Below, piece after piece: positions 5,920 through 61,436 of a stretch of DNA of 64,000 bases (the stretch's first letter is position 1; every line of letters starts with the position of its first letter). The stretch covers positions 19,180 to 83,179 of the IMG/VR virus record IMGVR_UViG_3300011336_000243; one strand, 5' to 3'. Under the pieces are notes generated by a model. The model was not told the DNA's origin. It did not search any database and saw nothing but the letters and a program-made list of their open reading frames with translations. This stretch comes from a virus (Duplodnaviria > Caudoviricetes). A program made the position numbers and the translations under genes.

Positions 5920-8900
5920 TTATCTTTTTATATCTTCAAGGCTTCTATTAAACATAAAGTCAAACTTGTTTAAGTTATTCACAATAGGAACTACTTTACT
6001 CCATTTCAACAATAAATCATGATATAAGTCTGGATCTTCTTCATAAGTTAGTTTAGCTGTAGCTTTAGTTGCTTTCCAAGCATCTTGTACTAAAGAAGCA
6101 GCAGGAATAAGACTACCTGTAAACTGACTAAACGTACCATAATCTGAATACATACTTACGTCTTGGTAGTTTCTATACAAGATATTAGTCATCATAGAAA
6201 CAAATTTCTTTTCAGCTTCATCGTCATCATCTAATCCTTTTAACATCATTCTGATTAACTGAGTAAGTGCATACAATCCTATACCATAAGATAGTTCTGC
6301 CATATTTCTACGTAAGTTCTCTATCTCAAAGTCACGTATAGGCATCTTCTTTAATATCTTTTCTCCTTTAGCATTAGTAGTCCACTGGTCAGTCATTAAA
6401 CCTTCATAAGGATCTATGCTTTTGTTTATTACGCTAAGCATTTGCTTACCTACAACTTTAAAACTACTAGAACCTAAGTCTATATAAGTACGATAACGTC
6501 CTTTAGTTTTTCTACCTAGTACAACATCTTCTTCTTGAGACTCTCCTCCCCATCTAGCATTAATACCATCATATAACCAAGAATTTCTAAACTGTCCAAT
6601 TAATCTACCTAAGATTTCTTTACGTCCATACTGAGGAGAGTTTTTATCTTGGTTACCAAAAACAATTATAGAAGTGTGACGTACTTTAGTTTTAAACTTA
6701 TTCCAGTCTGTCTGAAGAGTCTTGTCTTTAGAATACCAGTTTTCTGCTTTTCCATTAGCTTCTTCATCCCATTTAGCATCTTGTCCCAAAGCTTCAAATA
6801 AGTTTGTAGCTACTCCATTTACTTCTACTTTAGTATTTAAGGCCATAGCTAATGCCATAGCACCTTTAGATAAGAAGTCACCATTCTTTTGCCATGCCAT
6901 TGGATCAAATGTCTTCTTTAGATTACTACGTTCAAGTTCTGTAAGATTAGATTTACCAGCTTGTGTTTCTAAAAACTGATCTATTAAACCTATTCTGTCT
7001 AAGAAGTTTTTAATCTTTTGTGCTTGGTCCGAACCTTTAGCTCCTCTAATAGACCCTAAAGTTTTTACTATGTTTCCTCGCATCATTTTTAAAGCAGTTC
7101 CATACTGTTTAGAACTAAATTCTCCATTAGTAAAACCATCTTTATCAGCTCTAAAGCCCATAGAGTAGATATGTACTGCCATTAAACCATAAGTTAAGTT
7201 TGCGAATGCAGAGAAAGGACTAAAAGCTAATGCACGTAGTTGATTAATGCCCATAAGAGTATCACCTGCCTTAGATACAGCAAAATAACGCTTCTTATCC
7301 TCCATAGCTTCAAACTCTTTGTTTACTTGTGCTAACTCTTTTTCTAGTAATGCAATCTCTTCTTTTTGAAGTTCTACGTCTAGTGTTTTTAGTTTTTCTA
7401 CAATCTCTTCTTTTTTATCACGTAGTGCTTCATATCTTCTTGTATCTGACTCCCACTTTAAAGGGTTCATAGTGAATATAGGTTTCTTAGAAACACCTTG
7501 TACATTAATCGCTTTCTTACGAACTAGTGCATCATTATAATAATCTACGGCATCCATTAAGTTAGTCAACTCTGGTTTTTCTTTATTATCAGAGTTCTTT
7601 CTTTTTTGAGACTCTTTATTAATCAAAGTCTTCATCGTAGTATATTGAGCTTCCATTGGCGCCATGTAGTGAAAGTGTATAGCCATGTTACCAAACATCT
7701 CAAACATCTTGAATAGATCACGTGAAGCAGTACTTTTATTTCCTTTAGTATACATCAAAGGAATAGAACCATTTCCTACTCTGTTTACTTGTTCTTCTGT
7801 AACACTGAAAGCATGGAATATTTTCTTTCCTACATTAGTGTTTTGCATCCTAGTAAGAAGTCCATAGTTTTCTTCTACATCTGCTGCATTAGTAATAGGC
7901 AAGAAGTTTTCATGTAGTTGATTTTGTACGTTAGGAGGTAAATAACTTCTAAACTCTTTAGACATATTTTTAAACGTCTCATAGATTTTAGATAATCTTT
8001 TATCTCCCATAATAACATTATACTTAGGGTCTATGTTACTACTACTAGCCTTAGGAATAAAAGCAGGTGCGTAGTATCCAGTGTGACGTAAGTTAGGATG
8101 TTCCTCTGGTTTAGCTTGTGTATCTGTAAAAAAGAATGGACTACGTTCTTGCTGATACCTAGTAAACTCTTGAGCAGCTTTATCTTTTAACGCTTCTTCT
8201 CTTCTAGTTTCAATAACAGCATCTAGTTCAGCTTTGTACTCTGCAGTTCCCACAGCATACGTAGAAGTAAAACTTTTTGTAATTGCTAGAACTAATTCTG
8301 CATCTTCACCAGGTGTAAGTTTTACGTTGTCTAAGATATGATTTTTACGTACATTCTTAGAGTCATTAAACCTTTGAATAGTAGCTTGTGTACTACGTAT
8401 AGCGTCGTCTACTATTTCTTTACTACCACAGAAATCTACTAAAGCTTTATACTCTGCAGAATCCTCTCCTAGTTTTCTAGTTCCATCATAGTTAAAGAAT
8501 AAGTTAGGATCTATAATCATCTGGTCTTTTTTAGTTTCCCAGAATCTATCCCAAGCTTTCTTTACTTCAGCAGGAGCGTTACTATTTCTCTTAGCATTCC
8601 AAAGAGTATCTATATGTTTGCCAAGTATTTTAGAGTTGTTAGTATACCATTGTGAGTTTAGTCTTTGCGTAAGTCCAAACATATTAGGGTCCGATGGGTC
8701 ACTTTGAATAAACAAGTCCATTACTTCTTGTTGTGACTTTCCTGTAGCCTGTTGATATTCTTTCATCAAAGCTTTCAAATCTACTAAAGCGTCTCTATGT
8801 TCTAGTTGAGACTCTTGAGCCATATCAGCAGCCATCTTTACTTGGATAGCATAAGACTGTATTGCTCTGTTTAGATCTTTAGCTAATGTTAGTCCCCATT

Positions 8901-11900
8901 TGGTAAGAAGATTAGGGTTTTGTAAGTCATCTGTAAAGTCTTTAGTCTCTACGGTAAATCCTGCTTTAGCACTTACTTTAATTAAAGTGTGACCTGCATA
9001 CTCTTGCATTTGAGGAATAAGTCCGTCTAATTGTTTACGTACATCTCCCATTTGATTATAAACTGTAGGGATTAACTTAGGAGAGTCTGGTGTGTATATA
9101 TCAGTAATACCTTCCCAAAGTTTAAGAAGCGTACTAATCATACTACACTCTTCATGGGTCATTGCCTTACGATTAAGTAAAGTTCTGGCCCAGTCTAGTT
9201 GTTTAGCAGCAATGTCGTTTAAAAGTAACAAGTCTTTTTCTCTGATTACGTTTGACAAGTCTTCAGAGATTTCATCGTATATCTTTTCAGCTATACCTCT
9301 ACGTTCAAACTCTTCAGGAGTATATGCGTTGATAGCAATTACTGTGTTGACTTGATCTAACTGTAGTTCCATCCTTTCACGTAGTATCTCTAACTGTCTA
9401 GCATCCGCTAAAGACTTGCTAGGAGTTACTGGTGCTATAGAATAGTGAGTACCTAAATCTACTACGTCATTTTCTATTCCATAGACTTTCTCTACAACAG
9501 CAGACTGCTCTATGGCATTATACTCAGAAGCAAAGATGTTATCCCCTAGTTCAAACTTACCATCTGCATTACGAGTTAACTCTAATTTGTCTGTACGTTT
9601 AACTATATCATAAGCTAAGGCATAAGCTTCTTTTAGTATAGACTTGTCATTAACTGTTACTCCTATACTTTCTAACATAGAAGTAAGGAAATCTAAGATG
9701 TTGTCAATAAGATTTTGATACCATGCTTTATCTCCTTCTACTGTGTTTAAAAACTTAATTACACTGCCTTCAGTTAATACTCCAGGGATAAACTCTGTTA
9801 CACTAGATAAAGCATACATGATTTGAAACTCTTCATTAGTAGGTCTCATTTCTTTTTCTACTTCACGTAAACGAGCATCTCTATCAGGAGTACTCTCTTC
9901 TTTCATTATCGCTATTAGTCTGTCAGCTATAGCTCTACGTTCTTCACTAAGACCATTTCTAAAAGCACTTAATGCTTGGTAACGTAGTTTATCTAAACGT
10001 GCTGCCTTCTTAAACAAGACTTGATTGTTCTTAATTACTGTAGTATACCCTGGTTTGTTACCAAAGCCTAGTAATGATAAAACTGCTGAGCTATTAACGT
10101 GAGTAAGTTCATGAAGAAGTTTACCAGACATCTTAGCTATAGAAGACTGTCCTCTATTTGTTCCTAAAGTTATTTTGTTATTTCTAATAGAGTAAAGATT
10201 AGCGTTACCATTGTTAACTTCTAAAGACAATTGACCATAAGTATCTCCTAGTAAAGAAGCAAGTTGGTCTTCTCCACGTAAGTCCATCAAACTCATCTGA
10301 TCCGCTAATACGCGTAAGTGCCCAGGTAATTCTACGTTTACACTCATTAAGTCTAAAGCATATTGAATCTCTGTAGTTCCAACTGTAGTCCCTTCTAAGT
10401 TTTTTAAGTAGTTACCGTTTCTATCATGTAACTCTTTTACTTCTCTGTTTAATCTTGCTTTTTCTTCATTAGTAGCAGTACCTGTTTGTTGCATTGAAGT
10501 ATAAGCTCTGTTCTTAGGGAAGACAGACCTCATGTGAGAAGTATTTAAGTCGTACTCTGTTAAAGCGCCTTTACCTAAAGTATCTATACGTTGATACGTA
10601 AGTCCACCTACGTTAGCATACAAAGCAACACCACTAGGAAACTCTACGTGAAAGTAACTAACAGCACCATCATCTGTTTCTAATGGTTCTATTACTTTTC
10701 TATTACTATTATTTAAGTTAAAGACTTCTGGAATACTAAGACCATCATTTATCTTATAAGAAGAGATGTCTCTGTAGTTCATTTTAACTGCATCAGTAGG
10801 GTTATGCTGAAAGTACTGTCTTGTAATATTTCCTACTTTAGCTTCCATGTCTCTTAACTCTTGTGAGAACTCTTTACTAAGTAATAGAGCTGCAGGAACT
10901 TTAGAGATAAAACTATTGGGTCCATTATTAGGAGAAAGAAGTAAAGCGTAAGTAGCTATATCTTTTGCTAGTTGAGCAGTCTTCTTGTCTGTACTATTAA
11001 ACATACTCATAAAAGCATTGATGTTAGCTTCTGTGTCCATCAAGACAGCTTTCCCATTTTCGTAACTAATAGTACTAGGTTCTGCAATAGACTTGCTTCC
11101 TTGTACTTTAATTCTTTCTACAAAGTAGTTACCAGGGTTTTCTTTTCTCCACTCAAATACTCTTTGTGCTAATGAAGTTTCTGTAGCTGTTCCATAAAGT
11201 AGTCTTATTCTTTCTGCATACTTATCTACTCCTAAAGAAAGAGGAGAAGAAAGTACAGCAGCTTTATACGCTCTTTGTAACTTCAATGCTTTTTCATTAG
11301 ACAAAGAAGTTAAACTAGTTTTCATTTGGATAGCTATTTTACTGTTAACTTCTTGCATAGATCTCATAGGCATTAAGTCTGATTGTAAGTCTGTAGCTAA
11401 TCCTATAGTTAAATTAAATAAAGTACTCTTTTCTATGTTGTCTGCTAAAAGAGTATGACCTCCTATAAAAGATCTACCTCCATTTAGTTCAAAAAGATTT
11501 GTTTTATTTTCTGCTTGACTCTGTGCGTAGATAAAGTTTTTACCTGCACCATTAGTATCTTGGTTTATTGTTTTTTGTAGTTTACCTAAGTCTTGTCCTT
11601 TCTCGTAAGCATATCTAAAAGCCTTAAAAGCTTGTAACTCTAAAGCTTTTTGTTCTGGAGTAAGTTCTTTAGTTTTTACTAAATCTTCAAGACTTTTAGA
11701 AGTAATAGGTATCATAGTTTCTTCTACTTTTTTGTAAGAAGCTTCTATCTCGTCAAAAATCTTTTCTGCATTTTTAGGGAACTCACTAATACTATCTTTA
11801 GCATTACTCATCATCTTAGCAAACTTCTTTATTGGAGCTTGTAACATTAAAGCTATTACAAAGTCTACACCTAAAGCTTCTCCTTTACTGTTTCCTAGTT

Positions 11901-14900
11901 GATGAAGAAATTGTATGGCAGGATACGTAGCTAAGTTAATATTTAAGTAGTCTAATAATCTGTCTTTTGCATTATCTACGGCAGCTGATTGATAAACAGT
12001 ATGGTTTTCATGTTTAGACCTTCTGTTAGTAACCATCTCACCTGTCTTTTTATCTTTGTACGTGTACTCAGAATACCCTTCACCAGAAAGTCTATTAAAA
12101 CTCATTCCATTAAGTACTATAACTTCAGGGACTTCATCACCTTTATCATAAGAACCTAATTTTACATTTGCTCCTTGTAAGTCTGAGTTGAAAGTTACAG
12201 CTAATGAAGTACTACCTACTAAAGTCTTTGCATCTTTTCCTGAATCAAACTGTGACATTTGTGTAAAACCACTCCAGTACCAATCTTCATTAGAATCATT
12301 AGGAAACTTTTCATTCATCAAAGTCAAGTCATTTAAGTCTAATGCTTTTGTTACTTTCTCTGCAGAAACTACAGGATCAGTTAAGATAGCCCAGTGTAAA
12401 GCTACATATTGATTTACTATAAAATCTTCAGTTTCTTCCTCTGCCATTCTTAAACCACTTAAATCCTCATTTATAGTAAGTCTGTTATCTAAAGGTTTAA
12501 AAGAGTTAATCTTTTCTGTAGACTTTACGTTGTAAGGAAACTTGTAGGTATAGATTTTATCTACGTCAAAGTCAGAACCCATCTGTCCTGTAATCATGTC
12601 TGGAACAAACATAACGTCTCCCATCCAGTCAGGAACAAAACCTACTATTTCCATAGCAAGCATAGAGTTATGACCTTGGTTTGGAATACGAGCACCTACT
12701 AAACGTAGTAATTCCTGAGGAACTCTTTCCAAATCTAACATAGTTCGACCGTTCTCATCTACTTTCACGTAGTCCTTCACTGACTGTAGTTTACCGTTTA
12801 CGTGGAAGTTAAATGGCGCCAACACTTGTGCAGGTTTAACTACACCATCTTCTATTCTTTGATGCTTAAGTGGTTCAGTCCCATCGTAGCCTTCTACAAA
12901 AACTATCTCCGCTTTTTGTTCAGCAGTCAACTCATTAAACTGTTTTACGTCTTGGAAGTAACCTGTACTAGATGCCTGTACGTAACTCTTACCTGGTATT
13001 TTAGTAGTAGTCACTTTTTTAATCATTGACATAATCAAAGACTCAAACTTTTCTTGCGCATTGTGCAGTAAGAAAGGCACTACAAATTCTTGAGAGTCTA
13101 CTGTGTTTCCATCAGGTAAGACTTTAGTGTCTACAAATAACTTTAGTGCTACTAAATCATTACTTGTATATCCACGTGACTTAGCTTCTTCTTCTAGTTT
13201 AGCTACAAGTAAAGCTTTGTCTAAGTCTCGACTTTCTTCATTAATACCTAAAGCTTTTAAGACTTTAGGATATTCTTTTTGAGCCATTGCAGCTCTTAGT
13301 TTTTCTTTATAACGACGAAGTTCTTTACCTTTTACAGTAGTTCCATCTATTTGAAAGTCTAAAGAGTTAATACCTTCTACTATTAACTTATTCATCTGAG
13401 ACACAATCTTTACTTCTTCTTTTGCTTCATCATAAGGGATGTCTTGTTGAATTTTAAAGTTTGCTCTGTCTACTTGCTGTATAGCTGGTAATAAGTTTTC
13501 ACTAGTCAATTGTGTAAAGTTTGCTAGTTTAGTAGGCTTACCCATTTTAACAGCAGACTCAAACGTAATACGTTGTACTCCTCCATTAATTGTTACTCCA
13601 TCTACTGTTCTTCCTTCAGCTAATTTACGTAGGTTATCCATGTGTTTACTACGTACTGTGAACTGTGGTAATAAAGGATAAGCAGAAGACTTGATATAAT
13701 CTAAGTATCTAATGTTTCCATTGTTTACACTTCTCCATCCTGCTACTACTGGTTTCATAGCCTGCATAGGTTGTAACATCTGCTTTAGTTGGTCGTCTGT
13801 AAACTTATAAAAACCATCTTTGTCTGCATTGTCTACGACACCTTTTAACTCATCAAATAAGTTACTATCTATAAGACCGTAAGCTTTCATTACAGTAAGA
13901 TGCTCCATCACAGTAGTAAACTCTTGAGCATCTGTTCCATTAAAAGAAGTGATACCTCTTAACTCTTTCATGTAATCTTGCTTAAAAGTTTTTCCATCTT
14001 TTACGTCAGAGAAAACTAACTGGTTGTATTGAGTATCTTCAAACTGTCCTTTAGAACCAGGTGCAATGTCTTTAGCGGTACGTTTAGAGTACTCTTTCAT
14101 TGTAGAAACTACATCTTTCTTAAAAGCTAATGCAGGATCTCCAAAGAATAACATAGACATATTCATACTGTGTACAGCGTAGTTAGCAGAGAATTCCATA
14201 ACTACTTGTTCTAAAACTCTTCTTTTGTTTCCAGCAGTATCTTCTGGGTTATACCCTTCTCTTGATGCTATATCTTTACTAATACGTTTAATGACTTTTT
14301 GATCTACGTTGTTTAGTCCTATACCTAAATCTTCTACATTAGCTAAGTCTTTAGCTATTTGCTTTTTAAGATGCTCTGTAATATAAGTAGTACCGTAATC
14401 TTTTAAAAACTGTCTTAACTGTTCTTCACTTAACTTTTTAATAGTGCCGTCTTCGTTCCATAAGACTTTACCCATATCAGCATTGCCAGACTTTCCACCT
14501 ATTTCAGATTTGTTGAATGGTAAGAAGTAAAAGTATTTACCACCTTCCTTAAACTGAGCGTCAGTATGTAGATTGTTTTCAGTCATTCTTTGATGCTCAA
14601 GTACTCTACTGTACTCAGCCATAAATTTCTCTTCTAGTCCTTGTATACACTTGCTAATTTCGTAACGTGGTAATCCTTGAAAAATAGGAGTTTCTGTTTT
14701 ATCTGAGTGAGACAAAGACATCAAAGAGATGGTATCAGGTTGTTGATAGAATAGACCTAGAGCTGTTTGTATTTGTTCACGTAGAGACATATATTGTCTT
14801 ACTACTCCTTTGTCTGTTTCATTATGATTTAGCCCACTTAAAGATGATAGTGCGAATTTGTTTCTGTTCTTAGGTACGCTAAAATAAGATAAAAAGTTTT

Positions 14901-17900
14901 TACACCCATTACGTGCAAGTAATGACTTCTTAGAGTTTTCTGCAAACTTCTGCCAGTTATTCTGCATTAACTGTACTTGGTCAGATAAAGAAGTGTTTAA
15001 CTGATTAAGTGATATAGTCTTTCCTTCTGTACTTCTGTACGTAGAAGTGTTCATGATTGGAGTATGCATCATAGTCAACTTAGCCAACATCTTCATTGTA
15101 GTTGGTTCTGTTAATAAAGGATTGTTTAGCATCACTTTATTCATTCCTTCATCACTTAACTCTTGGTCTTCTTTAAAGATACCTTCACCTGCAGCTTTAG
15201 CAAAGAAGAAAGAGAATGGTCCACCTGGTGTACTTAATGCGTTCATTCCAAAACATCCTTTCCATGAAGTCTTCATGTAATTCTTTATATTGTCTTCACC
15301 ATTAAAACTTCTAGTCATAGTTTCTATAGCACCATCAGGTAAGTCTATACCGTACTCAGCAAACATCTTTTGTAGAATACCTCCTACTATCTTACGCTTT
15401 TGACTAAAGTCTATTGTACCTGGAGTACTAAAACCTTGTTCGTCTACTACAGGTTTAGTAGGAAATTCGTCTTCTATTAACTGTTCTAAAGTACCTTTAA
15501 AGTACTTACGAATACCACTGTTTTCAAACTCATCTTGAATAGCAGCTTTAGCTTCTGCAACTCTTTGACTTTCTGTTTCATTATAAGAAGTTAAAGCAGT
15601 TTGTTTATTACCGCCTAGTTTAGCAAAGTTTGCAGGTTTAAAACGTAGTGTCTCAAGTTTGTTGAAGAACTTAATGATGTTCCAGTGCTTTCTAGATTCT
15701 TCTATGTCTATAACAGCTTTGTTGTTTACTACCTTTACTATAGGACTAAGAGCAAACTCTTCTCTCCATTTGTCAACTAAGTCAGTCTCATTTCCACTAC
15801 GTGCTAAGTCCCTAACTTTTACATCAAGTATTTTACCACCTTCATCTCCTCCAGTTTCTATTAGTTTAGTTCTAACTTCTAGACCCTTTTTGTTCTGTTG
15901 GTACATAGCCTTCATGAACTGATGTTTAATGATAAGTGGAGTCTTATCACTCATTAGTTGATGTCCTACTTTCCAAGTAGATGGGCCACCCATAGTCTTT
16001 AATAAAGTCGCTGCTTTTTCTACAGTTAGTTCAGGTTGCCCTGCTAAGACTAAAGCACATTTACTAAAGATTTCATCAAAGTTTGTCGCGTAGTAAACCG
16101 ACATGCCTATAGAGTTCTTCTTTATATTAGTAGGTTTCTTAGGATTGATAATAGAGTTACCGTTCTCATCTACCATAAAGTTAAAACTTTCTTCTTCTGT
16201 AAACGTAGATAGCCACATTTTTACACGAACTGAAGTAGTGCCTCTTTGATCTTTGGTTACGTTGTCATAGTTTTCTCTATAGACTTGTCCTTCATTCAAA
16301 GCTTCTACTTCACTCTCTTCACTTTCTATATCGTCGTCAGGTGTAGTCACTGCATCTTTTTCTGTAATCTCATCTAACTTTAACTTAGCGTCATCATTTA
16401 ATAAGTCTGGAGAATTTGCTGGTAAGTCTTTTAACTTATAAAACAAGTTCTGTAACTTCATAGAATTCTCTGCACTGATTACGTAACCTAGTGCTTCCAT
16501 GTTATTTAGAACTAACTGTAATATACTTTTACGTTGGTCTACTCCTTTTTGGATAGTTACTTTTCCATCTTTACCTGTAACTTTACTTCCAGCTGGAAAA
16601 CTAAAACTTCTAATGGCTGCTTCTAACTTATCTGCTTCTTCATTCTTACCATCTTTTCTAAATAGATTAACTTGTATCTTTAAAGAGTTTAGTGCACTAC
16701 GTAAAGCAAGTTGAATAGGAGGAGTCTTAGCTGTTGACTGAGTTAACACTTTATACGTAGAGTATAGAGCCATGCCTGCTATTTCTAATTGGAAGTCTTG
16801 GCCAAACTCAGACAAGTATCCTATAGTTTTGTTGTTAGCATCTACTAAAGGTACTTCTGTTTTCATTCTTTGTTCCTTTACAGCTTCTGGATCTAACTTC
16901 AGATTACCTAGTCCCACTGTATCAGGATTTACTGAACTACGTAGAACCTCAGGACTATTGTTCATGTATGCCTCTACGTCTTTACTGAACTTTAAGTTAG
17001 TAGGAAAGGTGTCTTTCATCTCTGCCTTAATCTCTGCAACCATAGTCACATACTCTTGAGCAGTCATACCGTTAGTGTCTCTACGTAAAGCTTCTTTACT
17101 TAGTGGGTTCTTAAGAGGAAGAAGAATAGTGTCTGTAGTGTTTAAAGCAGGAAGTATCCAGTTATCTTTAATCCACTGACGCATTTCATTTACGTCGTCT
17201 ACTGTTACTTCGTAGTATTTACGTGCTTGCTTGAATGGACGTGTAGGTAATGCTGGAGCTGGTATTACTTTAGTTTCTTCTGTAGTGGGAGTAGTTTGTA
17301 AGGGTGCTTTAGGGATTTTCACAAAATCAATTACTACAGAGAAGCTGTTTCTTACATCATCTAGTTTAGTTTGTATATCAGCTTTTAAACTTTCTGAAAT
17401 GTCTGCACTTAAATCGTACTCATAATTCCCTACTACTTCCGTGTACAACTCAACAGTAGGCTCATTAAACAATTCTTGTGCTTTAGGTTCAAACTCTGTA
17501 AGAATAGTGGTAAACGGTACTAGGTTTCTTTTTATACTAACCACTTTAGTTGCGTAGTTTTGATTGAAGTACTCAAGTTCTTTTCCTTGTAACCCTGTGT
17601 ATTGGAATGTAGCGTACTCTGAGTCTCTAGTAGCTAACCCTAAATCTACTAGTTTTAACCAGACTTTAGCTGCTTCTGGTTTAAACCCATCACTGTTGAC
17701 TAGAAATTTTCCCCTTTGTTTAGCTTGTTCTCCTTTTAATATATACAAAGCTACTCCTAGTCCTTTATTTCTATACTCTTTTGGAAGTTGAATATGCTCA
17801 GGCTCTACTGTGTTTTTACCTTCTATAGGTGCAAATATAATCTTACTGGGGTCTAAAGGTTTTTCTTCATCTATAAGTTCATTAGGGTTTTCTCCTATAC

Positions 17901-18219
17901 GTAATAACGTCTCGATGTCGTCTATGGCTTTTAATATTCGTGAGTCTACTGAGTTAGTAGTCTCCTGAGCTAGGTGGATGTCTTGAACAGTCTCTAGGTT
18001 TGGAAATAATCCTTTTACCCACTCAAACGTGGGTTCTTGACTCTCTGCATCTACTGGCATGTTAGGAGCTACTGTCTCCTTAAACTTTCCATGCAGAGTC
18101 TCAAAGTCAGTAGAATACACGTAGTTCATTATACGTGAGGTCTCCTGTTCTCCATAGGCTTGAGTTAGTGCAGTTGCTAATACAGATTTCTTTCCATTCC
18201 AAGAAGTGTAACAATTCAT
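5920..18219 (-). CDS. Virion-packaged multisubunit-type RNA polymerase polyprotein (phi14:2 gp66-like core) with GNAT and zincin domains
   Basis: Catalytic GSDFDVDK (DxDxD at 12559-12573), ARIPNQG, YSKRTAKDIAPG and DAQEFTT. HELTH at 10099-10113. EYRNKGLG at about 17758-17778. Confidence 0.92.
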   Translation of the reverse strand: MNCYTSWNGKKSVLATALTQAYGEQETSRIMNYVYSTDFETLHGKFKETVAPNMPVDAESQEPTFEWVKGLFPNLETVQDIHLAQETTNSVDSRILKAIDDIETLLRIGENPNELIDEEKPLDPSKIIFAPIEGKNTVEPEHIQLPKEYRNKGLGVALYILKGEQAKQRGKFLVNSDGFKPEAAKVWLKLVDLGLATRDSEYATFQYTGLQGKELEYFNQNYATKVVSIKRNLVPFTTILTEFEPKAQELFNEPTVELYTEVVGNYEYDLSADISESLKADIQTKLDDVRNSFSVVIDFVKIPKAPLQTTPTTEETKVIPAPALPTRPFKQARKYYEVTVDDVNEMRQWIKDNWILPALNTTDTILLPLKNPLSKEALRRDTNGMTAQEYVTMVAEIKAEMKDTFPTNLKFSKDVEAYMNNSPEVLRSSVNPDTVGLGNLKLDPEAVKEQRMKTEVPLVDANNKTIGYLSEFGQDFQLEIAGMALYSTYKVLTQSTAKTPPIQLALRSALNSLKIQVNLFRKDGKNEEADKLEAAIRSFSFPAGSKVTGKDGKVTIQKGVDQRKSILQLVLNNMEALGYVISAENSMKLQNLFYKLKDLPANSPDLLNDDAKLKLDEITEKDAVTTPDDDIESEESEVEALNEGQVYRENYDNVTKDQRGTTSVRVKMWLSTFTEEESFNFMVDENGNSIINPKKPTNIKKNSIGMSVYYATNFDEIFSKCALVLAGQPELTVEKAATLLKTMGGPSTWKVGHQLMSDKTPLIIKHQFMKAMYQQNKKGLEVRTKLIETGGDEGGKILDVKVRDLARSGNETDLVDKWREEFALSPIVKVVNNKAVIDIEESRKHWNIIKFFNKLETLRFKPANFAKLGGNKQTALTSYNETESQRVAEAKAAIQDEFENSGIRKYFKGTLEQLIEDEFPTKPVVDEQGFSTPGTIDFSQKRKIVGGILQKMFAEYGIDLPDGAIETMTRSFNGEDNIKNYMKTSWKGCFGMNALSTPGGPFSFFFAKAAGEGIFKEDQELSDEGMNKVMLNNPLLTEPTTMKMLAKLTMMHTPIMNTSTYRSTEGKTISLNQLNTSLSDQVQLMQNNWQKFAENSKKSLLARNGCKNFLSYFSVPKNRNKFALSSLSGLNHNETDKGVVRQYMSLREQIQTALGLFYQQPDTISLMSLSHSDKTETPIFQGLPRYEISKCIQGLEEKFMAEYSRVLEHQRMTENNLHTDAQFKEGGKYFYFLPFNKSEIGGKSGNADMGKVLWNEDGTIKKLSEEQLRQFLKDYGTTYITEHLKKQIAKDLANVEDLGIGLNNVDQKVIKRISKDIASREGYNPEDTAGNKRRVLEQVVMEFSANYAVHSMNMSMLFFGDPALAFKKDVVSTMKEYSKRTAKDIAPGSKGQFEDTQYNQLVFSDVKDGKTFKQDYMKELRGITSFNGTDAQEFTTVMEHLTVMKAYGLIDSNLFDELKGVVDNADKDGFYKFTDDQLKQMLQPMQAMKPVVAGWRSVNNGNIRYLDYIKSSAYPLLPQFTVRSKHMDNLRKLAEGRTVDGVTINGGVQRITFESAVKMGKPTKLANFTQLTSENLLPAIQQVDRANFKIQQDIPYDEAKEEVKIVSQMNKLIVEGINSLDFQIDGTTVKGKELRRYKEKLRAAMAQKEYPKVLKALGINEESRDLDKALLVAKLEEEAKSRGYTSNDLVALKLFVDTKVLPDGNTVDSQEFVVPFLLHNAQEKFESLIMSMIKKVTTTKIPGKSYVQASSTGYFQDVKQFNELTAEQKAEIVFVEGYDGTEPLKHQRIEDGVVKPAQVLAPFNFHVNGKLQSVKDYVKVDENGRTMLDLERVPQELLRLVGARIPNQGHNSMLAMEIVGFVPDWMGDVMFVPDMITGQMGSDFDVDKIYTYKFPYNVKSTEKINSFKPLDNRLTINEDLSGLRMAEEETEDFIVNQYVALHWAILTDPVVSAEKVTKALDLNDLTLMNEKFPNDSNEDWYWSGFTQMSQFDSGKDAKTLVGSTSLAVTFNSDLQGANVKLGSYDKGDEVPEVIVLNGMSFNRLSGEGYSEYTYKDKKTGEMVTNRRSKHENHTVYQSAAVDNAKDRLLDYLNINLATYPAIQFLHQLGNSKGEALGVDFVIALMLQAPIKKFAKMMSNAKDSISEFPKNAEKIFDEIEASYKKVEETMIPITSKSLEDLVKTKELTPEQKALELQAFKAFRYAYEKGQDLGKLQKTINQDTNGAGKNFIYAQSQAENKTNLFELNGGRSFIGGHTLLADNIEKSTLFNLTIGLATDLQSDLMPMRSMQEVNSKIAIQMKTSLTSLSNEKALKLQRAYKAAVLSSPLSLGVDKYAERIRLLYGTATETSLAQRVFEWRKENPGNYFVERIKVQGSKSIAEPSTISYENGKAVLMDTEANINAFMSMFNSTDKKTAQLAKDIATYALLLSPNNGPNSFISKVPAALLLSKEFSQELRDMEAKVGNITRQYFQHNPTDAVKMNYRDISSYKINDGLSIPEVFNLNNSNRKVIEPLETDDGAVSYFHVEFPSGVALYANVGGLTYQRIDTLGKGALTEYDLNTSHMRSVFPKNRAYTSMQQTGTATNEEKARLNREVKELHDRNGNYLKNLEGTTVGTTEIQYALDLMSVNVELPGHLRVLADQMSLMDLRGEDQLASLLGDTYGQLSLEVNNGNANLYSIRNNKITLGTNRGQSSIAKMSGKLLHELTHVNSSAVLSLLGFGNKPGYTTVIKNNQVLFKKAARLDKLRYQALSAFRNGLSEERRAIADRLIAIMKEESTPDRDARLREVEKEMRPTNEEFQIMYALSSVTEFIPGVLTEGSVIKFLNTVEGDKAWYQNLIDNILDFLTSMLESIGVTVNDKSILKEAYALAYDIVKRTDKLELTRNADGKFELGDNIFASEYNAIEQSAVVEKVYGIENDVVDLGTHYSIAPVTPSKSLADARQLEILRERMELQLDQVNTVIAINAYTPEEFERRGIAEKIYDEISEDLSNVIREKDLLLLNDIAAKQLDWARTLLNRKAMTHEECSMISTLLKLWEGITDIYTPDSPKLIPTVYNQMGDVRKQLDGLIPQMQEYAGHTLIKVSAKAGFTVETKDFTDDLQNPNLLTKWGLTLAKDLNRAIQSYAIQVKMAADMAQESQLEHRDALVDLKALMKEYQQATGKSQQEVMDLFIQSDPSDPNMFGLTQRLNSQWYTNNSKILGKHIDTLWNAKRNSNAPAEVKKAWDRFWETKKDQMIIDPNLFFNYDGTRKLGEDSAEYKALVDFCGSKEIVDDAIRSTQATIQRFNDSKNVRKNHILDNVKLTPGEDAELVLAITKSFTSTYAVGTAEYKAELDAVIETRREEALKDKAAQEFTRYQQERSPFFFTDTQAKPEEHPNLRHTGYYAPAFIPKASSSNIDPKYNVIMGDKRLSKIYETFKNMSKEFRSYLPPNVQNQLHENFLPITNAADVEENYGLLTRMQNTNVGKKIFHAFSVTEEQVNRVGNGSIPLMYTKGNKSTASRDLFKMFEMFGNMAIHFHYMAPMEAQYTTMKTLINKESQKRKNSDNKEKPELTNLMDAVDYYNDALVRKKAINVQGVSKKPIFTMNPLKWESDTRRYEALRDKKEEIVEKLKTLDVELQKEEIALLEKELAQVNKEFEAMEDKKRYFAVSKAGDTLMGINQLRALAFSPFSAFANLTYGLMAVHIYSMGFRADKDGFTNGEFSSKQYGTALKMMRGNIVKTLGSIRGAKGSDQAQKIKNFLDRIGLIDQFLETQAGKSNLTELERSNLKKTFDPMAWQKNGDFLSKGAMALAMALNTKVEVNGVATNLFEALGQDAKWDEEANGKAENWYSKDKTLQTDWNKFKTKVRHTSIIVFGNQDKNSPQYGRKEILGRLIGQFRNSWLYDGINARWGGESQEEDVVLGRKTKGRYRTYIDLGSSSFKVVGKQMLSVINKSIDPYEGLMTDQWTTNAKGEKILKKMPIRDFEIENLRRNMAELSYGIGLYALTQLIRMMLKGLDDDDEAEKKFVSMMTNILYRNYQDVSMYSDYGTFSQFTGSLIPAASLVQDAWKATKATAKLTYEEDPDLYHDLLLKWSKVVPIVNNLNKFDFMFNRSLEDIKR

Positions 18220-57005: not shown

Positions 57006-57023
57006 TCTTTTCTAAACTTTCTC

Positions 57024-57067
57024 CGCCCGATGCAGGCTTTTTTCTTCTTTAAACGCCCGAATCGGGC
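57024..57067. repeat. CGCCCGA direct repeats 30 bp apart and the palindrome GCCCGA-A-TCGGGC
   Basis: Copies at 57024-57030 and 57054-57060, inverted arm at 57062-57067, and another inverted copy at 55698-55704. Confidence 0.8.
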
Positions 57068-57375
57068 AGTAGAATTTCCAGCAAACCTGCGTCAATACTG
57101 ACTTCCTAAAAATTCCCTCTTAGAGTAGTCAGATTGGGGCTGTCTCTTGCGCTAACGCGCAGCACTCCACAAACCCTTCCTCACCTCCTCAGACCCTCTC
57201 TTAGACCTAACCTCACTCCTTACTTAATTCTGTACAGTTTCCACCACTACTACACCTCCTCCTCAACCCTATTTTAGCCACTAAACTGCTACCCTGAACC
57301 ACACCTACAGACCTAACTTTTTACCTGACTTGAGCTTATTAGCCCTAAAGTCTCACCTATATAACGTAAAATCAC

Positions 57376-57412
57376 AACTAAAAGACTGGCTTACTTTACA
57401 AGCTGATATACT
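57376..57412 (+). promoter_or_regulatory. Early-gene 12-mer + hairpin element, copy 1
   Basis: AACTAAAAGACT / GGCTT-ACTTTAC-AAGCT / 8 nt / ATG. Confidence 0.75.
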
Positions 57413-57640
57413 ATGATTGATACACTATTACAGTACTTTACAGCTCCTTTGCCTCGCTTTAAACCAGAAGATGAGTATTTCCTAGCTTATTCCTCAGATA
57501 CCTTAGTTATCATAGAAGGTAACAGAATAGTTGAAGAGATTGTTAAGGGTAAAGACAACAATGCTACCTTATGTAGTACTAATAACCTTGATGAGTTCTT
57601 AGATGCTATACTAATCCTAAAGGAAAGATTACAACCTTAA
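57413..57640 (+). CDS. Small early hypothetical protein
   Basis: 75-aa ORF preceded by the early element. Confidence 0.75.
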   Translation: MIDTLLQYFTAPLPRFKPEDEYFLAYSSDTLVIIEGNRIVEEIVKGKDNNATLCSTNNLDEFLDAILILKERLQP

Positions 57641-57827
57641 TTTCAGACAGTCCAGAACATCAACGACTTTAAACTTATACGTGCAGAAATGTACGACATG
57701 TAGCTGCCTTGAACAAGCAGGAACTAGTTCTCATAATACTAGTTTTTGTCTACATGAATGAGTGTTCAGCTTGACCTTAACTTCTTTACTAGATAATATG
57801 CATTAGGTTTAGAAGAAAGGTGCTAAA

Positions 57828-57865
57828 ACCTTAAAGACTGGTCAACTATACTGACTATTATAAAT
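57828..57865 (+). promoter_or_regulatory. Early-gene 12-mer + hairpin element, copy 2
   Basis: ACCTTAAAGACT / GGTCA-ACTATAC-TGACT / 9 nt / ATG. Confidence 0.75.
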
Positions 57866-58192
57866 ATGCGTACAGAACAAAAAGAAAACTTTATCTTCCT
57901 AGCTTTTGTGCTAGTGACAATGCTAGTGTTAGCTTTTATCCTAGCTCCAGACAGAACTAAACTTCCACAACCTACAGTATCTACGCCACAGATTTCAGAC
58001 TCTACACTAAACCCTGAAGATAAGCTTATAGCTAAAGGTACTTGGTTGTGTGGAGACAGTAATGACACCTTAATCTTTACTAACAACAACCACAATGCTA
58101 TGCAGTTACTTAAAGAAAACTGGAAAATAGTACAAGAAGATGGCCAAGTAATATGGTTAAGCAGACCACAACCTTATACAAGATTAGACTAG
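57866..58192 (+). CDS. Early protein with an N-terminal transmembrane helix
   Basis: FIFLAFVLVTMLVLAFILA segment. Confidence 0.75.
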   Translation: MRTEQKENFIFLAFVLVTMLVLAFILAPDRTKLPQPTVSTPQISDSTLNPEDKLIAKGTWLCGDSNDTLIFTNNNHNAMQLLKENWKIVQEDGQVIWLSRPQPYTRLD

Positions 58193-58202
58193 GCTTTTAA
58201 AC

Positions 58203-58472
58203 ATGATGCAGTTATACAGATACAGTGAAGTCTTAGAACTTTATTACAAAGCTAAGACTCACATGCACAGGACTAAGAAAGTTCCTGATTTCCTAAAAGC
58301 TAGTCCATATTGGCAAAGAGAGTTTGCTCCTACACTACGTTACGTAGGTAGTCCTGACTTAACTGTTGCAGGATGTCAAGTAGTAGAGATGGAAGCAGAG
58401 TACAAGTTGTACAGCACATTGTGCAAACGAATCCAAGTACTCAGTAAAGAGTACGATTTATTAACCCTTTAA
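58203..58472 (+). CDS. Small early hypothetical protein
   Basis: 89-aa ORF in the operon. Confidence 0.7.
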   Translation: MMQLYRYSEVLELYYKAKTHMHRTKKVPDFLKASPYWQREFAPTLRYVGSPDLTVAGCQVVEMEAEYKLYSTLCKRIQVLSKEYDLLTL

Positions 58473-58509
58473 CTTAAAAGCGTAGTTCCCTTAAAGAACC
58501 TAAATAACT
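58471..58509 (+). promoter_or_regulatory. Early-gene 12-mer + hairpin element, copy 3
   Basis: AACTTAAAAGCG / TAGTTC-CCTTAAA-GAAC(C)TA / 7 nt / ATG. Confidence 0.65.
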
Positions 58510-58644
58510 ATGGTAGTTTTAAACATCAACAACAAAAAGACAGTAGCTCATTTGATAGTAGCAACTGCAAAGTATGTAATAGTAGAGATAAAAGGCTTAA
58601 GAAAGTCTTTTACTACTGCTGAATTTTATGACGCTTGTCGTTAA
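58510..58644 (+). CDS. 44-aa early protein, below the ORF-track cutoff
   Basis: MVVLNINNKKTVAHLIVATAKYVIVEIKGLRKSFTTAEFYDACR, preceded by the early element. Confidence 0.6.
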   Translation: MVVLNINNKKTVAHLIVATAKYVIVEIKGLRKSFTTAEFYDACR

Positions 58645-58688
58645 ACCTTCACCCTTCCTGGACATGAAGTCAAACTGTCCATTTTTAC

Positions 58689-59087
58689 ATGACTTTAACA
58701 GCATTACGAAAAGAACTTTACTTTAAAGCCTACGTTTCCTCTGATTGCGGTAAAGAAGCTGCTAGAAAACTAGGCATTAGTGAAGATACCTTTAATAAAA
58801 ACAAGTATAAGCAACTAGTAAATCCTTTTACTCCTTTGGTAACTCTCTACAAGAAATGGCTGAGACACCCTCAAAGAATAAGGGGAGATGCTAACTGCGG
58901 ACTAATAGTCTGGTATACAGAGAATTGTGGTATAGCTACAGATGCTATGAAAACACACTTTAAGCCAAGATTTTGTCATGGTCCAATCGCTAGTCCTTAT
59001 ATTAGCAGAGAACAGTCTCTTCTTATACTTAAGACTAGACTACAATTTATTTACACTTTAAAGACTGACTCCCTATACGAGTTATAA
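58689..59087 (+). CDS. Early protein with a putative HTH
   Basis: KEAARKLGISEDTFNK. Confidence 0.6.
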   Translation: MTLTALRKELYFKAYVSSDCGKEAARKLGISEDTFNKNKYKQLVNPFTPLVTLYKKWLRHPQRIRGDANCGLIVWYTENCGIATDAMKTHFKPRFCHGPIASPYISREQSLLILKTRLQFIYTLKTDSLYEL

Positions 59088-59092
59088 CTATT

Positions 59093-59656
59093 ATGTACTA
59101 CGTACAACTAACAAACGGGATTGAAATAATCTCAGACAAGCCTTTTGATTACGCACCAGATGGTACTCTTATGAAAGGTAACGCTATGTTTTGGAAAGGT
59201 AATGAGCCTGTCCAATATCTTAGTTTTAAAAAGGACAATGTACTTTTGTCTTGGGCTACAGGTATAAAAGAAATTAACGACTTCCCTGAAGCGATTCGTG
59301 AAGAAGAGGTCAAAGAAATTGTCAAAGAAAATTCTTTGTTCCCTTCTAGTACTAATGGATGGAGTCACGTAAGTCCTAATCCTGGTGAAAAATTCCTCTT
59401 TTATAAATCTACTAAAGACGTAGATTGGAAAGGACACAAACTAGAAGATTATAAGCATGATCCTAATGTAGCTTATTATTGTAGTATCAGACTGTTTAAT
59501 AATCCATATAGAGACAAACATGGACTTCCACCTATTACAAATGAAGATAAGAAAAAGTATACTCCTTACGCAGATATGCCAGCAGACTATGCAAAGAATA
59601 CTACAGTAAAGTATGCTAAAGCTCCTGTCATTAAAGACCACAACTTTCCTTTCTAA
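59093..59656 (+). CDS. Early hypothetical protein
   Basis: 187-aa ORF. Confidence 0.7.
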   Translation: MYYVQLTNGIEIISDKPFDYAPDGTLMKGNAMFWKGNEPVQYLSFKKDNVLLSWATGIKEINDFPEAIREEEVKEIVKENSLFPSSTNGWSHVSPNPGEKFLFYKSTKDVDWKGHKLEDYKHDPNVAYYCSIRLFNNPYRDKHGLPPITNEDKKKYTPYADMPADYAKNTTVKYAKAPVIKDHNFPF

Positions 59657-59976
59657 TGGGAAGACCACGTTTAGATGATACTACAGTATCAATCTGTACA
59701 GAACTAAGGAAGAATCAAGAAGGTAGAAAATTCTACTCTCATTCTTCTTGGTTTGATGAATGTGACTACTACTCTGTTGTTTACAAACAAGAAGATCAGC
59801 AGTTACTCATCAAAAAACACAGATTAGACATACCAAGATCTGCAAAAAAGATTTGTAGGTCTGTCAGCTGTTCTAGTTTGTACATAGCGCATTGCGTAGT
59901 ACCTGTAGGACGGTATGAAATTGAAGGTGACGAGGACACCCTAATCCTTGATATAACAAACAACTTAAAAGCTTAG
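59656..59976 (+). CDS. Early hypothetical protein
   Basis: 106 aa, TAATG-coupled to the upstream gene. Confidence 0.7.
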   Translation: MGRPRLDDTTVSICTELRKNQEGRKFYSHSSWFDECDYYSVVYKQEDQQLLIKKHRLDIPRSAKKICRSVSCSSLYIAHCVVPVGRYEIEGDEDTLILDITNNLKA

Positions 59977-60000
59977 TCTGCTATATGGACTACAAAATAT
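59962..60000 (+). promoter_or_regulatory. Early-gene 12-mer + hairpin element, copy 4
   Basis: AACTTAAAAGCT / TAGTCT-GCTATAT-GGACTA / 8 nt / ATG. Confidence 0.75.
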
Positions 60001-60282
60001 ATGAAAGCAACCACACTTGCGCTTAGTCGCATCGGATCACTAGCAGTTTTACTGTTATCTTTTATCTTAATCGCAGAAGCTATTACTTTTTGCTGTACTG
60101 GAACTATTAGTACAATAGGGCCTACTACTATGTGTGTTCTAATATCTTTAACTTTAATCTCTGATTGGGGAGCTAGAGAAGTTATTCGTGATAAGGCTAA
60201 AGAAAGAAAAGAAGTTAATACTTCACCACTTAAAGAAAAAGAGATAACTTACATACCAACAAACCCAATAGACAGATTATAA
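60001..60282 (+). CDS. Early membrane protein (two TM helices)
   Basis: Two hydrophobic segments followed by a basic tail. Confidence 0.7.
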   Translation: MKATTLALSRIGSLAVLLLSFILIAEAITFCCTGTISTIGPTTMCVLISLTLISDWGAREVIRDKAKERKEVNTSPLKEKEITYIPTNPIDRL

Positions 60283-60660
60283 ATGAAGTTAAGCAATAGT
60301 CATAAAAAACAGATAAAGGTGTTAGCAGGTAGATTGCCTGCTAATGCTATTTCTGCTCGTGGGAGAGAAATAGAAGTTTTAGACTCTAAAGGAGAAACAA
60401 TAGGAAATCATGTTATAAATCATGAACGTAGGATGAGAAAAGCCTACGAAACACACGGTGAGTCAGGTTATTTAATCTACTACGCTGGCTTCATTAAACC
60501 TAGTCCACACAAACTAGAAGTTTGGCAGTTAATTAGCCAACTAACTGGTTTATTATTACCAGCTGAATTTGTTCAAGCTATAAAAGGAGAGACCCCTACA
60601 GAGTCTGAAAAAGAAAATGCAGAAATACAGGAATTATCAGATGGAAACGCATCTGAATAG
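60283..60660 (+). CDS. Early hypothetical protein
   Basis: 125-aa ORF. Confidence 0.7.
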   Translation: MKLSNSHKKQIKVLAGRLPANAISARGREIEVLDSKGETIGNHVINHERRMRKAYETHGESGYLIYYAGFIKPSPHKLEVWQLISQLTGLLLPAEFVQAIKGETPTESEKENAEIQELSDGNASE

Positions 60661-60955
60661 AGAAGTGACAAACCAAGCAGAGTTCTTAGAACTTGCTAAG
60701 GAGCTTAAAGATGATATAGATAGTTTATATACTTTATTACGTGATACAGATGACGTAGATTTACGTAAACAACTTAGAGAAGAACTAACTAATGCAAAGA
60801 CACTTCAAGGTGGTCTTTTGTTTTTAGCTAGAAGAGTTTCTAAATATCAGCAAAGATTTAAACATACTTTCTTCAAAGTGTCTAAACAGTGGGTACCACA
60901 ACCATTGTTACAAGAGTTGATTAAAGAGTCTAAACGTAGGTTATGTACTGCTTAG
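60641..60955 (+). CDS. Early coiled-coil hypothetical protein
   Basis: ORF 60617-60955, ATG 60641 preferred. Confidence 0.65.
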   Translation: METHLNREVTNQAEFLELAKELKDDIDSLYTLLRDTDDVDLRKQLREELTNAKTLQGGLLFLARRVSKYQQRFKHTFFKVSKQWVPQPLLQELIKESKRRLCTA

Positions 60956-61056
60956 CTGCTTTGGTTGCAGGAGTATTATTAGGAGTTGTGGTAACTATAT
61001 ATATAATAACTAAAGTGCTAACCATTATAAACGAAGATTCGTTTGAGAGAGATTAA
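60943..61056 (+). CDS. 37-aa single-TM protein, below the ORF-track cutoff
   Basis: MYCLAALVAGVLLGVVVTIYIITKVLTIINEDSFERD. Confidence 0.55.
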   Translation: MYCLAALVAGVLLGVVVTIYIITKVLTIINEDSFERD

Positions 61057-61180
61057 AGAACCCATACTTGTTATAGAGTCGACCATTACTGCTTCAATGT
61101 CGTTAAACGTAGAAGAGATTTAAACTACCATTCTTATTTCCAAAGGATAAGCAGCAAGAAGCTGAGTAGTGATGGGATCA

Positions 61181-61220
61181 ACCTTAAAGGCTGGAAGACC
61201 TTAATCTTCCATATTTATTT
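61181..61220 (+). promoter_or_regulatory. Early-gene 12-mer + hairpin element, copy 5
   Basis: ACCTTAAAGGCT / GGAAGA-CCTTAA-TCTTCC / 10 nt / ATG. Confidence 0.75.
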
Positions 61221-61433
61221 ATGAATACAAGACATTTTGTAGGAGCTGTACTTTTCTTAGCTATGCTAGGATTATCAGTTTCTACTACTTACAAGTCATG
61301 GATAGAACCAGACTTAGTAGAGCAAGAGTCTACGTACGGTAGTAAAGACTACCCAAATTATAAGCAAGCAGATTCCTTGTTAGGAATGGAAGCTAGAGGA
61401 ACTAAAGAATGGTTAAACATAGCTAAAAAGTAA
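61221..61433 (+). CDS. Small protein with an N-terminal signal/TM segment
   Basis: FVGAVLFLAMLGLSVS. Confidence 0.7.
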   Translation: MNTRHFVGAVLFLAMLGLSVSTTYKSWIEPDLVEQESTYGSKDYPNYKQADSLLGMEARGTKEWLNIAKK

Positions 61434-61436
61434 AGT

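Follow-up and report, generated by a model that had tools for sequence, protein, structure and literature searches.

What is the repeated signal at the head of the early genes of a crAss-like phage, and what reads it? In an uncultured crAss-like phage, six of the first small genes are each preceded by a signal of ~45 bases, which consists of a conserved short box, a small hairpin conserved in shape and a short spacer of fixed length. We found six canonical copies and, 7.7 kb downstream, a decayed one, all on the sense strand and at the head of the early/replication arm, which bears out the proposal of an earlier note that this is a genuine strand-specific signal heading that arm. The element probably starts separate early messages and forms their leaders, and its reader is perhaps an RNA polymerase injected by the phage; judged from the sequence alone, a promoter and an RNA-level translation switch look alike. 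Positions are those of the window, a stretch of 64,000 nucleotides of the 83-kb genome, unless genome positions are indicated.

Copies and anatomy of the element

Anchoring on an invariant G aligned the copies without gaps. Described from this G, the layout comprises a 9-nt box, 3 nt of which the last is an invariant T, and a stem of 5-7 bp, followed by a loop of 6-7 nt, an A/T spacer of 8-10 nt and the ATG at G+29 to G+32 (G+29, 30, 30, 30, 30 and 32 in the canonical copies, 31 in the seventh). In each of the seven copies, two purines come after the T at G+3, and a T at -1 of the ATG is likewise invariant. The spacer is constrained in length and free in sequence.

The earlier note had reported five copies, and all five were confirmed with their stems and loops as described. 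Its total was too low, since there is a sixth full copy (59054), overlooked at the time, whose box and hairpin lie within the last 12 codons of a 132-aa gene, as well as the decayed seventh (Table 1). The genes behind the elements are small ORFans, the one behind element 1 being the first of the + strand arm. Gaps of 187 nt, containing a terminator-like hairpin, and of 123 nt precede elements 2 and 6, respectively, while at element 5 the stop codon of the upstream gene falls at G+3 to G+5. The strongest hairpin is that of element 6 (6-7 bp, 6-nt loop); element 3 is the weakest member, and its stem either ends in an A.C at its base or, paired differently, has 6 bp and a bulged C. The seventh copy retains box and loop with a stem reduced to 4 bp, and energy prediction returned no fold for it. 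The possible diverged relative of the element ends 7 nt 5' of the ATG of the 132-aa gene and is without the canonical box.

Table 1. Positions of the element copies and of associated features.
Feature	Position	Strand	Description	Score (bits)
Element 1	57375..57415	+	box, hairpin, 8-nt spacer, ATG of 75-aa gene	38.2
Element 1 stem	57388-57392 / 57400-57404	+
Element 2	57827..57868	+	box, hairpin, 9-nt spacer, ATG of 108-aa membrane-type gene	42.3
Element 3	58471..58512	+	box, weaker hairpin, ATG of 44-aa ORF	36.4
Element 4	59054..59095	+	box, hairpin, then ATG of 187-aa gene	40.1
Element 5	59962..60003	+	box, hairpin, ATG of 93-aa membrane-type gene	35.7
Element 6	61180..61223	+	box, hairpin, 10-nt spacer, ATG of 70-aa gene	32.6
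Seventh, decayed copy	genome 5252-5293 (L001)		precedes 116-aa gene
Possible diverged relative of the element	58659..58691	+	6-bp hairpin, same T-G-G foot, 11-nt loop
Terminator-like hairpin with T-run	57712..57752	+	between gene 1 and element 2
crAss-type virion RNA polymerase gene	5920..18219	-	4099 aa; candidate box reader

The pairing of the stems is conserved beyond their sequence. Stem cells were paired in 93% of cases compared with 67% in shuffles (0 of 500 reached 93%) and with 30-53% when the partner was slid, and four of the five pairs were altered on both sides. RNAalifold recovered the same helix and a sixth pair. As in N4-type promoters, variable stem positions covary while conserved positions stay. 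The hairpins are reasonably stable as RNA (-3.1 to -8.8 kcal/mol) and marginal as DNA (-0.9 to -1.9 kcal/mol in five of six copies, on either strand), and total folding energies show no preference for either strand. In 13 of 15 natural variants of the 132-aa protein, whose gene overlaps element 4, a C-terminal Leu is replaced by Ser, which we interpret, from the protein sequences alone, as the result of one base substitution by which the basal G.U of element 4 would become G-C. An asymmetry of wobble pairs between the strands (five sense against one) had appeared to support action at the RNA level; this argument was dropped because the energies favour neither strand and because most relatives apparently have a Watson-Crick pair at the element 4 foot, as deduced from protein.

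Specificity of the element and distribution of the box

The 12-mer consensus has six matches in the window compared with 1.39 expected, and five of them fall within 3.8 kb on the + strand. The whole-genome covariance-model scan proposed in the earlier note, run with filters off over 83 kb, placed the six copies on top (32-42 bits), well separated from the next best match (19.9 bits), and revealed no further copy. When each copy was withheld in turn, five of the six ranked above every non-member, the copy at 58480 being the weakest. The curated covariance models of Rfam gave no match to positions 56400-62000 at E-values up to 1.

The box alone is not private to the element genes. It contains the TAAAA core of the start-proximal motif of Flavobacterium (TAAAAA), which lies about 7 nt 5' of starts. 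Box-like motifs precede 11 of 68 ordinary genes of the phage at a distance of 0-18 nt, compared with 4.4 expected, among them late genes that already have host promoters, and an extended box occurs in the leaders of such genes, e.g., that of the major capsid protein. By eye, no box was seen before the tRNA-like RNA genes of the phage in the stretches read. TAAA[AG]/TTAAA peaks 7-12 nt before ordinary ATGs but 28-32 nt before those of element genes, a shift equal to the hairpin plus 3 nt; the A-rich core is thus further from the start than the about 7-9 nt of the Bacteroidota non-Shine-Dalgarno signal. In relatives and in phi14:2, a box-like motif lies 6-14 nt before ATGs and no hairpin is present, including at a homologue of the 187-aa gene.

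Promoters, terminators and gene coupling around the element

Host-type Bacteroidota boxes (TAnnTTTG) were found ahead of at least 12 late or virion genes and of the exonuclease gene. In six late genes this box lies exactly 4 nt before the ATG, which we read as putative leaderless starts. No intergenic TAnnTTTG was found within 57.0-61.4 kb, and none lies in or adjoining any copy, in line with the earlier note; this block therefore needs another start signal. Element 3 comes after a second hairpin with a T-rich tail, and no clear terminator lies ahead of elements 3-6, four of the six canonical copies. The long non-coding stretches 5' of elements 1, 2 and 6 share no second motif. Block genes without an element are translationally coupled to the preceding gene.

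The element hairpins were also considered as intrinsic terminators. This was judged unlikely because they are without U-tracts, apart from a weak one in element 6, the only hairpin to pass a terminator-like scan; the others have no T-run. A terminator-then-box order in relatives was set aside as anecdotal, the terminator count in L007 being at chance.

The virion RNA polymerase

The phage encodes a crAss-type virion RNA polymerase. The ORF carries DFDVD at residue 1883 and matches PDB 6VR4 (phi14:2 gp66; E = 5e-16), and the gene has a host-type promoter box of its own near 18246. It is the sole giant virion protein and is of the two-barrel gp66 type, not of the T7-like gp50 family that reads N4 promoters; a search for the latter with PF00940 gave no match, but its control was silent too, so that this search says nothing by itself. 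No sigma factor was detected in the genome. The gp66 of phi14:2 transcribes early genes and is active in vitro solely on single-stranded or denatured DNA, and in the phi14:2 study no motif emerged that was shared by the regions preceding early 5' ends. In the literature searched, no promoter or early-promoter consensus is defined for an injected crAss-type RNA polymerase.

Relatives

Among the relatives and collections searched, the exact element was seen only in this phage and one 1-kb relative, a contig (L014) that was the only closer relative in a JGI scan. With TerL and the 187-aa protein as queries, no close relative was found among IMG/VR or GTDB genomes; at the protein level, 30 variants were found. 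The covariance model (R1) gave no real match on 12 ligase-linked loci, phi14:2 and 21 pattern-selected IMG/VR contigs, a match in L022 being discarded as a single copy apparently within coding sequence. A fixed-spacing pattern scan of IMG/VR returned 21 single matches, roughly chance by our estimate.

Discussion

Our preferred account, put forward tentatively, is that each of the seven copies is a cassette of promoter plus leader that opens an early expression unit of its own. On DNA, the 9-nt box with the next 3 nt would act as a compact start signal, most plausibly read by the injected crAss-type RNA polymerase. Transcription would start at the purine pair after the invariant T, the first base of the stem, and the hairpin would fold in the RNA as a 5'-terminal stem-loop that protects the message. 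Its conserved loop may bind a factor, and the A/U spacer would present the AUG.

Several observations speak for such cassettes. All copies stand at the head of the early arm, oriented in the sense direction, and the 83 kb contain none elsewhere; element 1 heads the arm, elements 2 and 3 come after terminator-like or T-tailed hairpins, and no other motif is common to the stretches 5' of elements 1, 2 and 6. The T-purine-purine step corresponds to the pyrimidine(-1)/purine(+1) signature usual at starts, the covarying stem is more stable as RNA than as DNA, and the phage encodes a gp66-type polymerase and no detectable sigma factor. The gp66 of phi14:2 likewise serves early genes, with no consensus found for them. 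The Thermus phage P23-45 offers a precedent: its virion RNAP gp96, also two-barrelled and virion-delivered, uses AT-rich pre-early promoters (bioRxiv 10.1101/2022.12.01.518664), and, compared by description, both phages have many copies of a private A/T-rich motif 5' of the first genes, although in P23-45 the starts were mapped experimentally and no hairpin is involved. Against the cassettes, the box core is a Flavobacterium-type start-proximal motif and box-likes precede ordinary genes, including late ones with host promoters; the hairpin-less box near ATGs elsewhere would fit an RNA-level initiation signal at least equally well. The fixed hairpin-ATG spacing and the invariant T point to translation or a leaderless start, elements 3-6 have no clear terminator ahead, a merely protective hairpin leaves the conserved loop unexplained, and, in the searches made, the exact element turned up only in this phage and one 1-kb relative. 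A more specific version, which we regard as doubtful, is that the box (roughly 12 nt, directly 5' of the T/purine-purine start) is the promoter of the injected two-barrel polymerase in this lineage, that the same signal class includes the box-likes of relatives and those within the first 3.6 kb of phi14:2, and that the conserved-loop hairpin is a lineage-specific 5' leader in the position of a Shine-Dalgarno helix, in a host not using one.

A close rival, quite possible in its own right, is that the element acts purely at the RNA level, as a translation operator or split initiation site in a polycistronic early mRNA. The box would then be the ordinary non-Shine-Dalgarno start motif of the phage, with a regulatory hairpin inserted before the AUG that, folded or protein-bound, restores the normal motif-AUG distance, serves as operator for a translational repressor or activator, or is a nuclease site timing host-takeover proteins. 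The match of the core to the Flavobacterium RBS-like consensus, the shift of the motif by exactly the hairpin and 3 nt, the extended box in late-gene leaders with host promoters and the hairpin-less box close to ATGs in relatives and phi14:2 all agree with this, as do a spacer fixed in length only and the coupling of element-less block genes to the gene before; moreover, protein-bound RNA hairpins typically show a conserved loop on a covarying stem. Yet this account calls for a further promoter 5' of 57375 and for transcription through the terminator-like hairpin at 57712-57752, a candidate for an RNA-binding regulator was not found, the invariant G and the T-purine-purine are absent from the ordinary motif, and the seventh copy keeps box and loop despite losing most of its stem. 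Hairpin-bridged (split) ribosome-binding sites occur at T4 genes 38 and 25, where an initiation motif more than 20 nt from the AUG is likewise brought near by an intervening hairpin; these are single genes with Shine-Dalgarno motifs, whereas the present family has seven members with a common conserved loop, in a host system that does without Shine-Dalgarno pairing. The start-associated sequences (SAS/ESAS) of Cluster K mycobacteriophages (PMC3203893) resemble the element as short asymmetric repeats in one orientation, confined to non-structural genes, tied to ATG starts and built on a host-type ribosome-binding core that is sometimes extended by inverted repeats. However, the distance to the start codon is 3-7 bp for SAS and 29-32 nt for the present box, and covariation, clear here in the stem between box and start codon, is absent from the ESAS arms.

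One reading in the earlier note had made the element the promoter of the injected RNA polymerase, with the hairpin promoters of N4 as a model. The polymerase part holds in so far as a crAss-type virion RNAP is encoded; the N4-style hairpin is not supported. It would require an extruded DNA hairpin recognised together with box and loop bases and a leaderless start at the ATG, which we consider unlikely. In its favour, gp66 of phi14:2 needs single-stranded or denatured DNA in vitro, a first transcribed base at the A of the ATG would agree with the constant ATG distance and the T at -1, and the six late genes with the host box at 4 nt would provide leaderless examples. The N4 early promoters P1-P3, read by the injected vRNAP (PMC4496689), also cluster in several copies at the head of the early region, combine conserved bases with an inverted repeat of 5-7 bp in which the variable positions need only pair, and have a giant virion-borne polymerase as reader, here a candidate one. 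But the hairpins of N4, unusually stable and formed on the template strand, have a GC-rich core with a 3-nt loop centred at -11 (PMC4496689), whereas here no GC-rich heptamer with a 3-nt loop exists, the stems and the 6-7 nt loops are A/T-rich, and extrusion from duplex DNA is predicted to be unfavourable given the marginal DNA energies in five of six copies. In addition, N4 gp50 is no relative of this polymerase, a promoter of this kind would need to cover about -38 to -10, and the seventh copy does not fold. With the N4-style reading unsupported and the box not gene-specific, a start at the stem that yields a 5' hairpin, or an RNA operator, both also raised in the earlier note, fits better. 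Less probable still, and very unlikely in our view, is a cassette linker or host-polymerase signal akin to the PeSL (promoter-early stem-loop) cassettes of T4-type phages (PMC2839356), i.e., a promoter for modified host RNAP with an attenuating stem-loop whose main evolutionary role would be homologous recombination shuffling small accessory genes. Both are composites of a repeated start signal and a stem-loop directly 5' of small early ORFan genes; in both, the stem-loop lies between or adjoining conserved boxes and tolerates G-T pairs, and in PeSLs it is placed between or over the promoter boxes. Gene mosaicism may be a further likeness: in a region of ORFans, the gene after element 4 is mosaic among relatives, its first ~19 codons being nearly identical at a whole-gene identity of 51-96%. 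The crossover does not appear to be tied to element 4, however, because conservation there spans the whole upstream gene. PeSL promoters are of the host sigma-70 type with GC-rich terminator stem-loops, in contrast to the weak stems and conserved loop sequence here; the copies have no Bacteroidota -33/-7 elements, the genome encodes no detectable sigma factor, and the hairpins are without a U-tract, except weakly that of element 6.

CrAss-like phages rank among the most abundant viruses of the gut and of aquatic habitats. Being compact, present in seven copies and equipped with built-in compensatory controls, the element offers a ready set of templates for tests. It is suited to asking whether the enzyme recognises sequence, structure or both, and how non-Shine-Dalgarno Bacteroidota ribosomes handle a helix 8-10 nt before the AUG. 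Even if it were only an RNA operator, the element would still mark a set of host-takeover genes under common regulation.

The element is a covarying hairpin behind a conserved box

The five copies of a box and hairpin that the earlier note had located in front of early genes were all recovered at the same positions, and a sixth complete copy as well as a seventh, decayed one were found. When anchored on the invariant G that ends the box, the copies align without gaps. The seventh copy precedes a 116-aa gene, after which a 719-aa ORF comes next; no fold is predicted for it, though the box and the loop are retained. Pairing was found in 93% of the stem cells as compared to 67% in shuffles, none of 500 of which reached 93%, while slid partners used as a control paired in 30 to 53% of the cells. 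Both sides changed in four of the five pairs, and RNAalifold predicts the same helix, which upholds the claim that pairing is preserved despite differing stem sequences. The covariance-model scan that had been proposed was performed without filters on the whole genome: the six copies scored 32 to 42 bits and the rest of the genome at most 19.9 bits. When each copy was left out in turn, five of the six ranked above all non-members. No Rfam family matches the element.

Features of the element and its surroundings (window coordinates unless indicated; G+n, position counted from the invariant G of the box)
Feature	Position	Strand	Description
Box	ends in invariant G		consensus AMYTWAAAG
Three bases	after box		last one an invariant T
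Stem			5-7 bp, starts with two purines
Loop	between stem arms		consensus nCTWTAm
Spacer	3' of stem		8-10 nt, A/T-rich, sequence free
ATG	G+29 to G+32		T before ATG in every copy
Element 4 (sixth complete copy)	59054-59095	+	before 187-aa gene
Seventh copy	genome 5252-5293		decayed
Virion genes	3580-56969	-	
Early/replication arm	from 57413, beyond the window's end, into the record's first 22 kb	+	ligase, exonuclease, replication genes
RNA polymerase ORF	5920-18219	-	4099 aa
End repeat	genome 1-365 and 82815-83179 (window 63636-64000)		direct repeat
G-poor stretch	57160-57375		directly upstream of element 1
Terminator-like hairpin and T-run	57712-57752		in gap before element 2
37-aa ORF	60943-61056		overlaps end of 112-aa gene
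Tandem box-like motifs	44997-45030	-	three, directly before ATG of 323-aa late gene
Capsid gene leader	∼48710-48745		two box-like motifs
Host box close to ATG	56981, 55562, 35518, 5880, 43965; 2442 in the record outside the window (L001)	-	five late/virion-block genes, one ORF of L001

The elements head the early arm of a distant crAss-like phage

The window comprises the final 64 kb of an 83,179-nt IMG/VR virus record, which CheckV estimates to be 92% complete. The source is a distant crAss-like phage: its major capsid protein is ∼31% identical to those of gut crAss-like phages, portal and terminase match PHROG families, and the 4099-aa ORF has the motif DFDVD at residue 1883 and a match to the structure of the phi14:2 RNA polymerase gp66 (6VR4, E = 5e-16). 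IMG/VR classes the record as linear; its ends are 96% identical with 13 mismatches and therefore qualify neither as a clean terminal repeat nor as a clean circular overlap.

Element 1 stands before the first gene of the plus-strand arm. A gap of 187 nt precedes element 2, and a hairpin with a T-rich tail lies before element 3. No further motif is common to the three long non-coding stretches upstream of elements 1, 2, and 6. The genes headed by an element are small ORFans, and several are of the membrane type. Those of the block that lack an element overlap or abut the gene before them, so translational coupling is possible. The host box TAnnTTTG, the Bacteroidota -7 box, was identified upstream of at least 12 late or virion genes and of the exonuclease gene. 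From 57.0 to 61.4 kb, none is intergenic, in agreement with the earlier report that the elements have no host box.

With 13 G per 200 nt vs. a mean of 34 ± 6, the stretch upstream of element 1 has the lowest G content in the window; it is C/T/A-rich on the plus strand. By eye, a similar pyrimidine-rich, G-poor stretch is seen at the same divergent junction of a ligase-linked relative (L002, ∼4860-5110). The stretch upstream of element 1 may encode an early non-coding RNA like that of phi14:2, or may serve as an entry or origin region. The previously unlisted 37-aa ORF encodes a single hydrophobic helix and is separated from element 6 by a 123-nt gap.

The box resembles a motif at ordinary gene starts

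In Flavobacterium, GeneMarkS-2 reports a non-Shine-Dalgarno core, TAAAAA, ∼7 nt before starts. The box can be tied to this host-type start-proximal motif in four ways, and it is not private to the element genes. The same core peaks 7 to 12 nt before ordinary ATGs of this phage vs. 28 to 32 nt before the element genes, an offset equal to the hairpin plus three bases. Of 68 ordinary genes, 11 have the extended box within the 30 nt upstream (4.4 expected); among them are late genes equipped with host promoters of their own, e.g., the capsid gene. In seven relatives with ∼50% ligase identity (L002-L008), the hairpin element was not found; box-like motifs lie 8 to 14 nt before many plus-strand ATGs, and a similar A-rich motif immediately precedes the ATG of a distant homologue of the 187-aa gene found there. 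The first 3.6 kb of phi14:2 (266-3590) contain seven box-like sites with the pattern AAC..TAAAAC, each 6 to 11 nt before an ATG, those of g002-g004 included, as against ∼14 such motifs on both strands of the other 96 kb. The end of a tRNA-type T-arm sequence in L002 (11390-11470) is followed, after ∼40 nt, by a box-like motif and ATG; therefore, RNA genes appear to be interleaved with box-led genes there.

Relatives offer little evidence on the element itself. DNA of a close relative was available for a single 1-kb contig (L014), in which element 4 is retained and differs at one degenerate position of the box. Because the last codons of the 132-aa gene lie within element 4, variants of this protein are informative: 13 of 15 end in Ser instead of the Leu of this phage. 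Judging from the protein only, we take this to reflect a single nucleotide substitution by which the basal G.U of element 4 would become G-C. The following 187-aa gene is mosaic between relatives (window 59093-59656 vs. L014:394-897 and the protein variants P0001-P0006). The first ∼19 codons hardly vary, and in L014 they are nearly identical at the DNA level as well; over the whole gene, identity is 51 to 96%, compared to at least 90% for the upstream 132-aa gene.

Discussion

Any model must explain six features: the conserved box, the covarying stem, the conserved loop, the spacer with its fixed length but free sequence, the confinement to where the early arm begins, and the absence of host promoters there. 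We tentatively favor, at somewhat less than even odds, a promoter-leader cassette, in which a polymerase, probably the injected one, would recognize the box on DNA, transcription would start at the purines that follow the invariant T, and the hairpin would form the 5' end of the message. Almost as good, and a serious possibility at about one chance in three, is a function in RNA only, where the box would act as the usual initiation motif and the hairpin would have been inserted as an operator or bridge; the kinship of the box to motifs at ordinary gene starts and the constraint on spacing speak for it.

An N4-like DNA hairpin with a leaderless start is unlikely. N4 promoters have a GC-rich core and a 3-nt loop centered at -11, and their unusually stable hairpins form on the template strand and are read by a T7-like enzyme (PMC4496689). 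In contrast, the loops here are 6 to 7 nt long and A/T-rich, the DNA hairpins are marginal (only -0.9 to -1.9 kcal/mol in five of six copies, on either strand), and the seventh copy keeps box and loop without folding. The predicted RNA hairpins reach -3.1 to -8.8 kcal/mol. A PeSL-like linker or a host-polymerase signal is more improbable still. The phi14:2 study reported no motif shared by the sequences upstream of early 5' ends, and our literature search found no later paper that defines a crAss early promoter.

Outside the elements, the ATG of six genes follows the end of the host box at a distance of 4 nt (7 nt in one case). From this spacing, we read the messages of these genes as leaderless, which, if so, would be noteworthy in a Bacteroidota phage.
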